64,000 nucleotides of DNA, from positions 1,120,001 to 1,184,000 of the forward strand of contig OZ239628.1 in the NCBI GenBank assembly GCA_965195345.1, in the 5' to 3' direction. Under the pieces are notes generated by a model. It worked only from the letters and a program-made list of their open reading frames with translations. It was not told where the DNA came from and searched no databases. Of the stretch, positions 11,235-44,657 are shown in pieces. The stretch's first letter is position 1, and each line of letters starts with the position of its first letter. The translations under genes and the position numbers were made by a program. This DNA comes from an uncultured Thiomicrospira sp. (GTDB taxonomy: Bacteria; Pseudomonadota; Gammaproteobacteria; CAKMZV01).

Positions 11235-12386
11235 CTACAAGCGCTTCTTTTTCATGGCATTGTGCCATTCATCTTCTTCAATATGTAAGTAGCGTTGCGT
11301 CGTTTCAAGGCTCTCGTGTCTTGCTGTTGCTTTAAGAAACCGCATATCAACACCGCTATCGGCTAAATGTGTCAAACCAGTGTGTCGCAACCAATGTGTA
11401 GAGGTTTTTCTCAATCGCTCAGCTTCATAAGGATCAACGTGTTCAAGCTCTAATGCAGCTTCAGCAACGCAACCTTTGACAATTCTATAAACCATATCCG
11501 CTGTTATCGCACGAGTTCCATCCAGTGAAGTGAGCAAAGGTTCATGGGAAGAGGGGGTAGGGGTGGCAGGTAGATTGCGGTGTAGTCGATAACGCTCTAA
11601 CGATTTCATCATCTCTTCTGATACGGGGACTTTCCTTGTTTTATTACCTTTTCCATGAATAAGCCACCACCAATTACCCCTGTCTTTGTAAAAACTACTC
11701 ATAGAATGCTTTACCACTTCGCTAACACGAGGCATCTGTAAATAAAGTAATGCAAATAAAAAACGCATTCGTTCCTTTTTGGCGATTTCTTTGGGGTCAT
11801 TAGATTGCTTACTTTCAATAAAGCGCCAAAGGAAATCCCACAGTTCCCGTGGTAGATAGCGCTCAATAGTTGCACGTTTGTCAACATTTCTACGGCCACT
11901 TTTTCCCATCAAGCGTATAGGATTACCTCTGAGATACCCTGCGTCAGTGAGGAATGAGAAACAACGTCCAAGAATAGTTAAAGCTAATTCGCGACTGGGA
12001 TCAGATAATGGACCAGAAAAAGGTTTCCAATGTTTATGATGTCGCGGGCGTTTTGGTCCACACCAAACTTCTGCTGGTGACGGATTACGCATAAAGCGCC
12101 AATAAGCGGTTATGTCCTCAACATCAAGGCTTGATATTGGCTTTCGGCAATCTACCAAGCACCAGCGATACAAACGTTCGACTTCTTTGCGATAGCTTCG
12201 GAAAGTTTGCGGTGAGTCTCGATATAAATTCAACCACGCCCCAATGGCTTCCAAATCATCATCCGCTTTAATCAAAGAAGATGGGGTGGCATTTCGATTA
12301 GTACCGAAACGGCCATTGAGCGTGTCAGGGAGAGTTAATGGCGTTTCAATGGGTTTGATAAGATCTTTGGAATTGTGCATGCGCAT
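11235..12386 (-). CDS. Tyrosine site-specific recombinase, single copy, transcribed away from the prophage array
   Basis: Catalytic residues R (MPRVSE), K (GKGNK), HxxR (HWLRH), H and Y (RHESLETTQRY); N-terminal RSYRKE..R and WKPFSGPLS..S. Confidence 0.93.
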   Translation of the reverse strand: MRMHNSKDLIKPIETPLTLPDTLNGRFGTNRNATPSSLIKADDDLEAIGAWLNLYRDSPQTFRSYRKEVERLYRWCLVDCRKPISSLDVEDITAYWRFMRNPSPAEVWCGPKRPRHHKHWKPFSGPLSDPSRELALTILGRCFSFLTDAGYLRGNPIRLMGKSGRRNVDKRATIERYLPRELWDFLWRFIESKQSNDPKEIAKKERMRFLFALLYLQMPRVSEVVKHSMSSFYKDRGNWWWLIHGKGNKTRKVPVSEEMMKSLERYRLHRNLPATPTPSSHEPLLTSLDGTRAITADMVYRIVKGCVAEAALELEHVDPYEAERLRKTSTHWLRHTGLTHLADSGVDMRFLKATARHESLETTQRYLHIEEDEWHNAMKKKRL

Positions 12387-12442
12387 CTCATTAAATTTTC
12401 AATTTAATGATTATAACATCTTGTTAAAAAAGAATATATGTA

Positions 12443-12470
12443 ATTCGTGATTATGAAGATAATCACGAAT
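12443..12470 (+). other. Recombination site A1: perfect 11-6-11 palindrome ATTCGTGATTA-TGAAGA-TAATCACGAAT
   Basis: Arms are exact reverse complements; about 57 bp upstream of the recombinase start; marks the left edge of the repeated unit. Confidence 0.85.
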
Positions 12471-12577
12471 GGAGGCTAAAAACTGCCGGATATTTAAGCA
12501 ATGAAAACGGAAATAATCGATCAAATTATGAACCGCTTATATCGTTCGAATCTTCTAAAAAATCACGGGTCAAGGAA

Positions 12578-12856
12578 ATGATTGTTGATGAACTTGGTGA
12601 AGTTGGTGCAAATGCTTTAGAACAGCTATACAACAAGTATTTGCGCCCTTATGACGTTAATCAAATAGGCATAAATGGGATATATAGAATTATTAATAAA
12701 TTTGATGCCTCATTCCTCTCTACTTTCGCTTTTAGATTGAAAACAAAAGAATACAGCTTTATCGCTAACGTGATCGCCGACATGCTACGCACGGACGAAT
12801 TAGGCGGTGATGAAACAATGGATATTCCTGTTTTTACCGCCGTGAAAATAGCCTAA
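12578..12856 (+). CDS. Hypothetical protein; frame is open back to site A1 (candidate inverted C-terminal half of the repressor)
   Basis: No stop from codon GAA at 12455 to ATG 12578; conserved in unit 2. Confidence 0.65.
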   Translation: MIVDELGEVGANALEQLYNKYLRPYDVNQIGINGIYRIINKFDASFLSTFAFRLKTKEYSFIANVIADMLRTDELGGDETMDIPVFTAVKIA

Positions 12857-12879
12857 AGCCCCAATATAACGGGGCTTTC
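12856..12879. terminator. Hairpin, likely bidirectional terminator between convergent ORFs
   Basis: AAAGCCCC-N8-GGGGCTTT; equivalent near 26690-26713. Confidence 0.6.
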
Positions 12880-12898
12880 AGCGTTCTAAACCTTTGAT

Positions 12899-42314: not shown

Positions 42315-42329
42315 TTTTCATTCCTTTTT

Positions 42330-43307
42330 TTATTCTTCTTTTATAGGGTTGCCATTTTCGTCCACTTCAATCATGTCGTTTTCTTCAGGATCGAAATCTG
42401 CAGGAAAGATTGTGTATCTGTCATACTTCGCCCTTTGTAACTTCGCCTCTTGTAACTTCGCCCCTTGTAAATACGCCCCTTGTAACTTCACCTCTTTTAA
42501 ATTCGCCCATTGTAAATTCGCCCCTTGTAACTTCGCCCCTTGTAAATACGCCCCTTGTAACTCCGCCCATTGTAAATACGCCCCTTGTAAATACACCCCT
42601 GTTAACTCCGCCCCTTGTAACTTCGCCCTTTCTAAATTCACCCCTTGTAACTCCGCCCCTACAAAATTTGCAACCTCTGAATTCTTTATTGCTCCTATCT
42701 GTGAACCTGGTACTTTTTGTGGATTGGCTCTTTCTTTGCTGGTGAGTATCAAATCTTTAGTAACATTATCAATTTGATTGGTAAAAGCTGGATAATTTCT
42801 TTTTAAAGTTGCTAATGACTTAACACCAATACAACGACTTGGTAATTCAGTTGATGCCAGTAAAGTATAAGCATTGGATAGAATTGCAGTATGGATGCTC
42901 TCTTGTGCTTTTTGGATTTGTTCTCTGGTGTCATGTGTTCTGAAATACCATAAACCAATAAATACAGGCAACCCCAATAATAAAACTCTTATTGAACTCG
43001 CTGCGTAACTTTCTTGAAATTTATCACCATCAAAGGATAGAAGTTCAATGATGCAATCAGAAAAGAGAGTAGTTAAAAACATGCCTACAATAGAAAGAAT
43101 TATTAAACTTATAAATCGCCCTAATTTTGTTTGTGTAAGGCATTCCCAAATCTTCATTCCTTTATTCTTTTTTTGTTTAAGCCATTCGATTCTTTGTTTA
43201 GAACTGGTGGGAAGAAGACATAAAAGAAAAATGGCAACTACTAAAGTAATAAATTGCTTAAGCATCGGGCTAAGGCTAATTTGTATGAGCCAATTTTCAA
43301 TATTCAT
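42330..43307 (-). CDS. Membrane-anchored pentapeptide-repeat protein (array member 2)
   Basis: N-terminal ~130 aa near-identical to 41301-42314; different repeat block. Confidence 0.9.
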   Translation of the reverse strand: MNIENWLIQISLSPMLKQFITLVVAIFLLCLLPTSSKQRIEWLKQKKNKGMKIWECLTQTKLGRFISLIILSIVGMFLTTLFSDCIIELLSFDGDKFQESYAASSIRVLLLGLPVFIGLWYFRTHDTREQIQKAQESIHTAILSNAYTLLASTELPSRCIGVKSLATLKRNYPAFTNQIDNVTKDLILTSKERANPQKVPGSQIGAIKNSEVANFVGAELQGVNLERAKLQGAELTGVYLQGAYLQWAELQGAYLQGAKLQGANLQWANLKEVKLQGAYLQGAKLQEAKLQRAKYDRYTIFPADFDPEENDMIEVDENGNPIKEE

Positions 43308-43365
43308 TTTTCATTCCTTTTTTTGATTATTAAGTGAATTGTGAAGCACTCTGCGGGGTGCTTTT

Positions 43366-44424
43366 TTATTTTTTGTTTATCGGGTAGCCATTTTCGTCTA
43401 CTTCAATCATCCCATGATCTTCAGGTTCAAACCCTGGAGGGAATTTTGTTTCAGTATCATAAAAAGCTCCATCTAAAAGTGCCGTATCTAATTTGGAATT
43501 CAAGTCCGAGGAGAGCATGCTATTAACATCTAAACCAAGTGCCTTTGCCACTTGATGATTCATGTCTGCTGGGCAAAAGCATGCACCTTGTAAGTTAGCA
43601 CCTTGTAATTTACTTTCCTTAAAATCTACCTCTATAAAAGTCGCATTTTCAAAGTTTGAATACCTTAAATCAGAATAGGAAAAATCAACAAAATGCGAAA
43701 TACTATTGGGAAAATTCATCCCTGAAAGATCCACATACATAAGGCGTAATCTTTCCTTATTATCAGAAAAACCGTTTAAAGAAAGAGCAGTAGTAGATTG
43801 ATCAAGTTGAGTTTGGATAACTGAACTTTCAACCGTTTGCTTCAATACAGCCAATGTGACTAATCCAAGTCTACGGGCATTGACATTATTAGTGCTAATT
43901 AAATTTAATCCATTTGATAAGATGGAGGTGTAAGTGTTCTCCTGTGATTTTTCAATCTGCTCTTTTGATTGGGTAGTCTGCTTATGTGATATTTCAATCT
44001 GCTCTTGTGATTTTTCAATCTGCTCTTGTGTCTTTTCAATTTGTTCTCTGGTGTCATGTGTTCTGAAATACCATAAACCAATAAATACAGGCAACCCCAA
44101 TAATAAAACTCTTATTGAACTCGCTGCGTAACTTTCTTGACGCTCATCACCATCAAAGGATAGAAGTTCAATGATGCAATCAGAAAAGAGAGTAGTTAAA
44201 AACATGCCTACAATAGAAAGAATTATTAAACTTATAAATCGCCCTTTTTTTGTTTGAGTAAGCCCTTTCCAACCGAACCGTCTGAACCATCGATAATACT
44301 TCTTGAAAAAAGCATAAACTTTTGACTGTTTTAAGAATTCTGTTCTTGATAAATTAACAAATTGTTTTATTTTTATTTGTTTCAACCATTTCCAATACTT
44401 CTTAATCCATTCAAAAATATTCAT
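43366..44424 (-). CDS. Membrane-anchored pentapeptide-repeat protein (array member 1)
   Basis: Shared TM block, five heptads, divergent pentapeptide domain, TKFPPGFEP end. Confidence 0.88.
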   Translation of the reverse strand: MNIFEWIKKYWKWLKQIKIKQFVNLSRTEFLKQSKVYAFFKKYYRWFRRFGWKGLTQTKKGRFISLIILSIVGMFLTTLFSDCIIELLSFDGDERQESYAASSIRVLLLGLPVFIGLWYFRTHDTREQIEKTQEQIEKSQEQIEISHKQTTQSKEQIEKSQENTYTSILSNGLNLISTNNVNARRLGLVTLAVLKQTVESSVIQTQLDQSTTALSLNGFSDNKERLRLMYVDLSGMNFPNSISHFVDFSYSDLRYSNFENATFIEVDFKESKLQGANLQGACFCPADMNHQVAKALGLDVNSMLSSDLNSKLDTALLDGAFYDTETKFPPGFEPEDHGMIEVDENGYPINKK

Positions 44425-44565
44425 TTTTCATCTCTTTTAGTTTTTGAGTAAGTGAATTTTACCCTCTCCGTCTGCGAAAGTTAAAAGGTTGCTTGGCACG
44501 CGTCTGCATGTGTTTTGTATAAGTCGCTTTTAATTATTAAATGATTGTTTTACTTTGGGGAAAGA

Positions 44566-44657
44566 ATGAACAAAAGCACAATGAAAACGATTACGGGCGG
44601 TGGTATTTACTGTTGCGGTCGCGTTCACAACGGGCTAACGCCTTAAGAAGGGTATTT
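44566..44657 (+). pseudogene. Frameshifted P7-like gene fused to a capsid-gene fragment
   Basis: MNKSTMKTITG then +1 G; 44628-44658 matches capsid 21455-21485 at 28/31. Confidence 0.75.

Follow-up and report, generated by a model that had tools for sequence, protein, structure and literature searches.

A tandem array of PM2-like prophages at the putative dif site of a XerL-like recombinase in an uncultured Thiomicrospira

Introduction

Legionellales and some other proteobacteria lack dif and XerCD, and Carnoy and Roten (2009; PMC2731167) raised the question of how dimers are resolved in these bacteria. In Legionella pneumophila, a single recombinase, XerL, was found to be sufficient alone at dif (Nicholson, Deecker and Ensminger, mBio 2022; PMC9765430). 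The Legionella dif has perfectly symmetric arms and lies near the skew maximum, at distances of 89 bp to 79 kb, and it is the target of LME-1, a phage-like element that integrates via a 22-bp mimic of dif and after whose integration dif is intact upstream but modified downstream, the modified site lowering excision; in Coxiella burnetii, XerL is plasmid-encoded and adjoins a plasmid dif (PMC9765430). Here we analyze 64,000 bp of the genome of an uncultured Thiomicrospira sp. (the window; GenBank assembly GCA_965195345.1, contig OZ239628.1, positions 1,120,001-1,184,000), in which the gene of a XerL-like tyrosine recombinase adjoins a perfect 11-6-11 palindrome, named A1, that is followed by two apparently intact prophages related to phage PM2 and the remnant of a third. 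We consider it likely that the recombinase is the single Xer-type dimer resolvase of the host, from a clade that is sister to XerL, that A1 is its dif, and that the phages and the remnant are IMEXs (mobile elements that integrate by exploiting Xer) that use this host system.

The window has several features in common with the XerL systems. Both comprise a single tyrosine recombinase in bacteria without XerCD and a symmetric (here putative) dif near the terminus. Like LME-1, the window phages carry a partial dif mimic and have an intact dif at one border and a weakened site at the opposite border. The recombinase gene is adjacent to the site, as it is on the C. burnetii plasmid, the core GTGATTA-N6-TAATCAC being common to both by our own reading of plasmid pQpH1. 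However, the window recombinase is 29% identical to the C. burnetii protein and falls into a sister clade; the window elements are tandem PM2-like phages with one good arm, whereas the LME-1 mimic covers 22 of 29 bp; and gene and site are adjacent in the window, whereas they are unlinked in Legionella. The distance from A1 to the skew maximum is 35-67 kb, to be compared with the range published for Legionella (PMC9765430).

Elements without an integrase are well known at the dif site of Vibrio cholerae, where CTX, TLC and VGJ carry dif mimics, stand in tandem, leave an intact dif at one end and use rolling-circle replication, as in the window; those are filamentous single-stranded DNA phages that use the two recombinases XerC and XerD, whereas the window phages, judged from their genes, are double-stranded DNA phages with a double jelly-roll capsid protein and are associated with one recombinase (PMC9966536, PMC11630473, PMC9765430). 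The NO16-like ('Asemoviridae') and V. cyclitrophicus tailless prophages are small temperate double jelly-roll elements of ~11-15 kb that reside at dif with dif-like sites, but their hosts have XerCD (PMC9966536, PMC11630473). Tailless vibriophages were proposed to use XerCD (PMC9966536, PMC11630473), and dif-targeting tailless prophages regularly carry integrases (PMC11630473). As for tandem arrays of tailless phages, the word 'tandem' is absent from the available text of PMC9966536, and the tandem passage in the available part of PMC11630473 concerns filamentous prophages. PM2 and the corticoviral prophages have a core of P2-type coat protein and packaging ATPase combined with variable replication, lysis and integration modules, as do the window units, although the window capsid protein is very divergent and the unit genome is ~14 kb; for corticoviral elements without recombinases, the CTX/XerCD route was already raised by Krupovic and Bamford (2007; PMC1950889). 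Integrons, finally, are similar in having the recombinase gene beside the primary site and proximal entry of new units, whereas the window has no attC cassettes, its units are autonomous 14-kb phage genomes bounded by dif mimics, and its site would be dif.

Results and discussion

The recombinase gene, the A1 site and the repeated junctions

The host genome (G000) is a single contig of 1.92 Mb with 39.8% G+C. Its order is small in GTDB, with five species genomes that all belong to one family: besides G000, these are G001 and G002 of the same genus and G003 and G004, other members of the family. G033 represents another family. In G000, the recombinase gene (11235-12386, minus strand, ATG at 12386) encodes a 383-aa protein with a PF00589 match of 72.3 bits, and A1 (12443-12470, plus strand; ATTCGTGATTA-TGAAGA-TAATCACGAAT) is placed 56 bp upstream of its ATG. 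The window has no perfect 11-6-11 palindrome other than A1 (the mean in shuffled windows was 0.08, n=50), and the whole 1.92-Mb genome contains 15 such palindromes.

The 17-mer comprising the spacer and the right arm of A1 has exact copies at 26288-26304 and 40601-40617. With up to three mismatches allowed, five matches were found in the window versus 0.41 expected, a number reached by none of 100 shuffles. The exact copies are parts of two further sites, A2 (26277-26304, plus strand; TAAGTTGCGTA-TGAAGA-TAATCACGAAT), a candidate hybrid or attP-type site, and A3 (40590-40617, plus strand), whose sequence is identical to that of A2. Their left arm, TAAGTTGCGTA, agrees with the dif left arm at four of 11 positions, and A2 and A3 share with A1 a stretch of 19 contiguous identical bases out of 28, which runs from the two innermost left-arm bases (TA) through the spacer to the end of the right arm. 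The sites delimit unit 1 (12471-26276, plus strand), with 13,806 bp between sites, and unit 2 (26305-40589, plus strand), a related but distinct phage with 14,285 bp between sites, so spaced that the starts of successive units are 13,834 and 14,313 bp apart; beyond A3 follows unit 3 (40618 to ~44633, plus strand), a remnant of ~4 kb whose closing site is lost. The array is flanked by the host genes metB-like, yhbY and rlmE on the left, and by a TauE-family gene, a pyrC-like gene and pyrB on the right.

A six-frame search detected neither a tyrosine (PF00589) nor a serine (PF00239) recombinase inside 12471-44657, with four and three matches, respectively, genome-wide, and the small open reading frames of the array gave no match to an integrase, an excisionase or a XafT-type or other Xer activator. 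An earlier note on this DNA, made from the sequence and a list of its reading frames, had described a recombinase gene with an 11-6-11 site upstream and three head-to-tail PM2-like units, the recombinase lying outside the units, the two proximal units being intact and without an integrase, and the distal one decayed. This description was confirmed, with the gap between gene and site now measured at 56 bp.

The unit-to-unit junction is also present in public Logan contigs from four runs of one study, which break at a 31-nt repeat (12452-12482); one of the runs may represent the source sample. The summed contig depth over the units was 25-47 versus 25 on the flank (run X1), giving no sign of excess phage DNA.

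The recombinase as a host gene

The recombinase has a single-copy homologue in all four other family genomes, and in G001 and G002 the gene adjoins the same metB-like, yhbY and rlmE genes as in G000. Its identity to the homologues of these two genomes (60%) lies within the 43-64% range of the neighbor genes, while the phage capsid gene was found in none of the four other family genomes. Because of this synteny, the neighbor-like divergence and the relatives without the capsid gene, we regard the recombinase as a vertically inherited host gene. Besides this recombinase, PF00589 matched two P4-type integrases in the genome, one split and one of 410 aa, and a 431-aa recombinase next to a resolvase; neither XerC nor XerD is among the four matches, and the XerD family search gave 0 matches in G000-G004.

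XerS and difSL of streptococci and lactococci also consist of a single recombinase linked to dif (PMC1914069, PMC2731167), but they belong to another phylum. On the window recombinase, the XerS model scored 38 bits versus a cut-off of 267 and the integron-integrase model TIGR02249 scored 33.4 bits versus a cut-off of 265, while the best NCBIfam matches were XerC and XerD, both far below their cut-offs. The XerS site is, in addition, asymmetric. In an alignment of eight recombinase homologues, R220, H331, R334, H357 and Y366 are invariant, as is K246 or K249, and we take these to be the candidate catalytic residues.

The recombinase aligns over its full length with CBUA0010 of C. burnetii plasmid pQpH1 (E 4e-49), which is the sole integrase-family gene on that plasmid. 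The catalytic tyrosine of CBUA0010 would be residue 389, the position of the Y389F mutation of PMC9765430, if the protein starts at its second methionine. About 165-185 bp upstream of CBUA0010 there is a palindrome, GTGATTA-TCAAAG-TAATCAC, with the same 7-bp core arms as A1. In a 37-row maximum-likelihood tree, the recombinase was placed in a 13-row clade (support 98/94) together with homologues that carry the labels Competibacter, Contendobacter, Oleispira, Marinospirillum and Thioalkalispiraceae. Its sister is a 16-row clade (100/100) to which the C. burnetii protein belongs, and both clades are apart from XerC and XerD; the tree was midpoint-rooted, with XerC and XerD from three relatives forming one side, and contained five of the 80 wider-clade loci described below, the truncated locus L027, XerS, XerH, IntI, phage integrases and L. 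pneumophila XerL having been left out. Because of its position in a sister clade, the recombinase is called XerL-like here and not XerL in the strict sense.

A1 as the putative chromosomal dif

The exact core GTGATTA-N6-TAATCAC occurs once per genome in all five family genomes. The full 11-bp arms are identical across these genomes save for one mismatch in G001, while the spacers differ (TGAAGA, TAAAGA, TTAAGA and TGTAAA), and the same arms occur once in G033. In G001 and G002, the site is located in an intergenic gap of ~500 bp directly after the pyrC-like and pyrB genes, the same pair that borders the distal end of the array in G000. No half-site repeats were found within 20 kb of the site in these two genomes, and the site is therefore empty there; the site of G004 is empty as well. 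The recombinase gene and the site are unlinked in all four other family genomes, being 48-54 kb apart or on different contigs. The same palindrome, looked for upstream of the recombinase gene in the closest relatives, is not there, the site being elsewhere in those genomes.

In G000, the cumulative GC skew is lowest at 229 kb and highest at 1,199 kb. A1 (1,132,443) lies 67 kb away from this maximum, a distance that shrinks to 35 kb if the array is left out. For G001, 24 windows of 20 kb showed positive skew from 1.2 Mb through the record start to 139 kb and negative skew from ~0.2-0.3 to 1.1 Mb; since the change of sign from plus to minus falls between 139 and 200-300 kb, the terminus of G001 is next to its dif (117,957). 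A1 appears to be the chromosomal dif of the host, intergenic and AT-rich, located near the terminus and having symmetric arms.

Several other observations concern the surroundings of the site. Read from the pyrC-like flank, the dif spacer has opposite orientations in G000 (TCTTCA) and G001 (TAAAGA), and genes that are adjacent in G000 at 1,512-1,517 kb are found in G001 on either side of the 48-kb interval from xerL to dif. An inversion that had one of its ends between xerL and dif would fit the orientation and the gene split, and could account for gene and site being adjacent, within the family, in G000 only. Half-site repeats were also sought around xerL in the relatives, and only G033 showed a repeat: a region of ~250 bp upstream of its recombinase gene is duplicated 5.1 kb away (C1:103000-122999; oriented positions 10256 and 15409), and the true dif lies ~121 kb from the recombinase gene. 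The dnaA gene of G000 is at 415 kb, ~186 kb from the skew minimum, and that of G001 is likewise distant from the switch in the sampled skew; in this group, dnaA is a poor marker of the origin.

The wider clade and its relation to XerCD

We scanned species-representative genomes with an alignment of eight homologues, an earlier scan with a single protein having returned nothing, and obtained 80 loci with 44-60% identity. A single site of the form ATTCRWGATWA-N6-TWATCWYGAAT was present upstream of the gene in 44 of the 80 loci and downstream in none, a count that is partly circular because the consensus was derived from the same loci. The site lies within 400 bp of the match start in 30 of the 80 loci and at 0.8-9.2 kb in 14. 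As a control, an 11-6-11 palindrome with up to two mismatches was found in 32 of 76 upstream windows versus 20 of 248 control windows. A gene-adjacent site is the usual layout of the clade, to which the recombinase's own family relatives are the exceptions. In the 44 loci with a site, no second half-site (up to two mismatches) was detected in flanks of up to 10 kb, and no arrays were seen. Homologues near 40% identity are also carried by ~1,900 plasmid records: the homologue on a 156-kb Halioglobus plasmid has a perfect site ~90 bp upstream, and that of Cupriavidus necator pHG1 has no site upstream, where an insertion sequence is located.

The homologue and XerCD show an inverse distribution. 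Among 61 relatives, 26 carry a homologue (E <= 1e-20) and 33 a XerD-family match (E <= 1e-30; 28 above the curated cut-off), and the two genomes that carry both have XerD-like scores of ~190 bits versus a cut-off of 329.6. We then cross-tabulated by hand 400 genomes of the class, sampled in a family-balanced manner (G251 was left out as unscored, and four XerD-only genomes are flagged unpublished); related genomes in this sample are not independent. A homologue (E <= 1e-20) was present in 115 genomes and a XerD-family match (E <= 1e-60) in 281, with both in 15, the homologue only in 100, XerD only in 266 and neither in 19. Hence 100 of the 119 genomes without XerD carry the homologue. This inverse pattern fits a functional replacement of XerCD, while the 15 overlaps and the plasmid copies mean that the recombinase family has other roles too.

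These data invite a broader statement, namely that XerL and its sister clade are together the dimer resolvase of most Gammaproteobacteria without XerCD (100 of 119), with dif typically no more than a few hundred bases upstream of the gene, and that PM2-like phages have joined the IMEX lifestyle there. We put this forward tentatively, with the doubts slightly outweighing the support. The XerL study answered the question of dimer resolution for Legionellales (PMC9765430), and the present locus and its relatives suggest that the answer reaches much further: a related recombinase with a recognizable 11-6-11 site is found in roughly a quarter of the family-balanced gammaproteobacterial sample and in most of those genomes without XerCD. 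The dimer-resolution question thereby becomes testable in culturable genera such as Marinospirillum and Halioglobus, and the locus will gain in interest should the wider clade turn out to replace XerCD generally.

Proposed integration of the phages at dif

The units have the features of IMEXs: they contain no recombinase of their own, they are integrated at the putative host dif, and a dif mimic forms their junctions. We infer that they were integrated by the host Xer recombinase, the enzyme that would cut this site. The attP of the phage would have the A2 sequence, mimicking dif by the 19 contiguous bases, and a circular phage genome would be inserted by recombination between mimic and dif within the common spacer. 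A1 would then be rebuilt, its left arm coming from the host and its right arm from the phage, and a crippled hybrid, A2, would be left distally; because the phage site has the spacer and the right arm of A1, each integration would regenerate A1. Later phages would enter at the intact A1 beside the recombinase gene and push the older ones outward, so that a tandem array with a decayed distal member would result from entry of new phages at the intact site, the newest unit probably being nearest the recombinase. By analogy with LME-1, the degenerate left arm would hinder excision, which would stabilize the prophage and leave the host one good dif. The phages may make progeny from the tandem array via Rep-driven rolling-circle replication without excision, like CTX phage.

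This is essentially the regeneration of A1 that the earlier note had proposed, here recognized as the IMEX mechanism and supported as an inference. The order of insertion that it gave, newest nearest the recombinase, fits the most decayed unit being farthest from A1. Its suspicion that A1 is the chromosomal dif, for which it had suggested the GC-skew check run here, was borne out by the terminus region, the conserved arms and the one core per genome, and relatives having the recombinase and an empty site, which it had suggested searching for, were found in G001, G002 and G004. The note had known of nothing comparable for double jelly-roll phages; here it fell short, since IMEXs at a single-recombinase dif (PMC9765430) and tailless double jelly-roll vibriophages at dif (PMC9966536, PMC11630473) are described in the available texts. 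What seems new is the combination of double jelly-roll phages with a single-recombinase Xer system, and the wide occurrence of the XerL-sister clade in Gammaproteobacteria without XerCD, often with the site just upstream of the gene. Neither such a phage nor this clade outside Legionellales was found in the literature as far as its text was available, and the figures and tables of PMC9765430 may list overlapping orthologues and dif sequences.

Several points weigh against our interpretation. First, the phage left arm agrees with dif at only four of 11 positions, and synapsis of such a site by a homotetrameric enzyme is presumed. Second, the public contigs show the tandem junction alone, which is common to a circle and an array. 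Third, A1 is 35-67 kb off the skew maximum in a region where the skew is flat, and an octamer-polarity analysis of the terminus, looking for words like the FtsK-orienting polar sequences, gave no clean switch, the skewed words coming largely from repeated genes. Fourth, family membership by itself is no proof of a chromosomal role, because 15 of the 115 genomes with a homologue also have XerCD and ~1,900 plasmid records carry one. Fifth, the recombinase is outside the clade that holds the validated C. burnetii XerL, in a tree without XerS, XerH, integron or phage-integrase comparators, and that the pQpH1 palindrome would be the plasmid dif of PMC9765430 is our own reading of the plasmid sequence. 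At last, the mode of integration is read from this one locus, because no related phage was found elsewhere: by capsid protein, none was detected in an IMG/VR pattern scan, in the 400 class genomes or in the five genomes of the order, and the phage-database matches of the capsid protein are confined to 11 V. cyclitrophicus prophages with 21-25% identity.

If the proposal is correct, tailless, membrane-type phages join the parasites of a single-recombinase Xer system, and the array would be a natural example of this, its layout suggesting the order of phage arrival. It also carries a warning for annotation, as an 'integrase' adjoining a prophage may be the host's own Xer.

Alternative explanations

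Instead of serial integrations, the array might have arisen from one integration followed by tandem duplication, or from an integrated replicative multimer. The structural modules of units 1 and 2 are 97.7% identical over 5.5 kb (97% for the capsid genes), their A2-type sites are identical, and rolling-circle replication can yield multimers, all of which would agree with such an origin. However, the two units are mosaic elsewhere. From the left end, 87.7% identity over the first 700 bp gives way to a stretch of 313 bp (~330 bp in unit 2) without a match, which is followed by 513 bp with 98.8% identity, an insertion of 684 bp in unit 2, a replication module with 91.3% identity and pentapeptide-repeat genes with ~79% identity. 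Such a mosaic is expected of two related phages, and unit 3 has its own, more divergent pentapeptide-repeat genes (69-81% identity in long alignments). Because of these differences between units 1 and 2, we favor serial integration, as the earlier note had proposed, and regard a duplication or multimer as improbable.

The same note had interpreted the locus as an integron-like platform, that is, a dedicated capture system in which the recombinase and its adjacent site serve to stack whole phage genomes as cassettes. In G000, gene and site are indeed adjacent, with three units stacked in one orientation, and a site shortly upstream of the gene is frequent in the wider clade (within 400 bp in 30 of 80 loci). 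This label is nevertheless not supported by the relatives: the site is empty in G001, G002 and G004, it is unlinked from the gene throughout the rest of the family, and no arrays were seen in the flanks of up to 10 kb of the 44 wider-clade loci with a site. The single exact-core site per genome, in the terminus region where tested, and the strong inverse relation with XerCD also speak against it, the integron-integrase model is far below its cut-off, and what is stacked are not promoterless attC cassettes but whole phage genomes that bring promoters and replication genes of their own. A dedicated platform is accordingly very unlikely, and the locus looks like a housekeeping system exploited by phages. 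Still less credible is a mobile-element origin, in which the recombinase would be the integrase of, for example, a helper or satellite located at the array's left end and A1 the attachment site of that element, since the matches to phage-integrase families (PF00589; phrog_1, E 5.1e-33) and the ~1,900 plasmid records are opposed by a gene that keeps its place beside housekeeping genes in G001 and G002 and has diverged at the same pace as these, is single-copy in relatives where no related capsid gene was found, and has a site conserved in relatives between host genes at the terminus position.

A second dif-like site within the phages

A second dif-like site, S2 (12907-12934, minus strand; GTTCGTAACTC-TGAAGA-TAATCACGAGA), lies inside the 3' end of the helix-turn-helix (HTH) regulator gene of unit 1, inverted relative to the entry site and separated from it by 436 bp. 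Unit 2 has a second copy (26741-26768, minus strand), and the 28-mer is identical in both units though the surrounding 700 bp are 87.7% identical. The arms of S2 agree with dif at seven and nine of 11 positions, which is better overall than A2. S2 could serve as a partner for inversion or as a binding site in regulation, or it could be a relic, and it may take part in site formation or in a switch.

The phage units and their genes

By their gene content, units 1 and 2 are PM2-like phages, and they display two hallmarks of PM2-like phages (Corticoviridae / Vinavirales): a P2-type double jelly-roll capsid protein and a packaging ATPase gene adjoining the structural module. Both units encode an HTH regulator, a Dam-type methylase, a GPA-family Rep, a P-loop packaging ATPase, a pentapeptide-repeat protein on the opposite strand, the P2-type coat protein, a collagen-repeat protein and an endolysin-like protein. 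In unit 1, the HTH DNA-binding regulator, a candidate repressor (12899-13258, minus strand), matches phrog_4441 (E 2.3e-15) and phrog_638 (E 1.9e-09) and has no Pfam match. It is followed on the plus strand by a D12-class N6-adenine DNA methyltransferase of the Dam type (14281-15108; PF02086, 86.1 bits; phrog_56), a rolling-circle replication initiator of the GPA family (15655-17205; PF05840, 181.6 bits; phrog_91, annotated as nicking at the origin) and the P-loop packaging ATPase (18226-18885; phrog_2666, E 6.3e-18), whose AAA-type Pfam matches are weak and all below cut-off. The pentapeptide-repeat protein (19238-20554, minus strand; PF00805, 207.4 bits) is an accessory, moron-like gene product. 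The major capsid protein (20844-21623, plus strand; phrog_8536) matches PF18628 (P2_N) with 48.8 bits and PF25513 (P2_C) with 60.3 bits, the Pfam cut-off being 25 bits for each, and the endolysin-like protein (24435-24935, plus strand) matches phrog_873 (E 2.8e-41).

In unit 3, the left end of the phage is reduced to 12 bases after A3, from which the sequence jumps into the C-terminal part of the ATPase gene (40616-40960). The remnant further contains one small open reading frame, three tandem pentapeptide-repeat genes on the minus strand (41301-42314, 42330-43307 and 43366-44424) and a 184-bp stretch (44450-44633) with homology to sequence upstream of the capsid gene. To the right of it, the gene of a TauE/SafE-family membrane protein (44658-45407, minus strand; PF01925, 89.4 bits) is either a host gene or cargo: with this query, no match was found in G001-G004 or G033, and the gene may be cargo of an older insertion, so that the right end of the array can be placed only between 44,634 and 45,412.

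A pentapeptide-repeat gene is located between the ATPase and capsid genes, on the opposite strand, in every unit (33422-34891 in unit 2), and the unit 1 protein has an N-terminal hydrophobic segment as read from its translation. That three copies were kept in the remnant despite the loss of replication and structural genes hints at selection for them. In unit 2, a run of about ten G residues followed by a long GTTCTT/GTTTTT hexamer tract (34147-34393) lies within the pentapeptide gene region; it is absent from unit 1 and may be prone to slippage. Both intact units also contain three to four copies of a 46-bp direct repeat (25951-26195 and 40164-40316), with an 18-bp coding repeat just upstream. 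In each unit, these repeats sit no more than ~330 bp upstream of the closing attP-type site, and they may be iteron-like or regulator sites.

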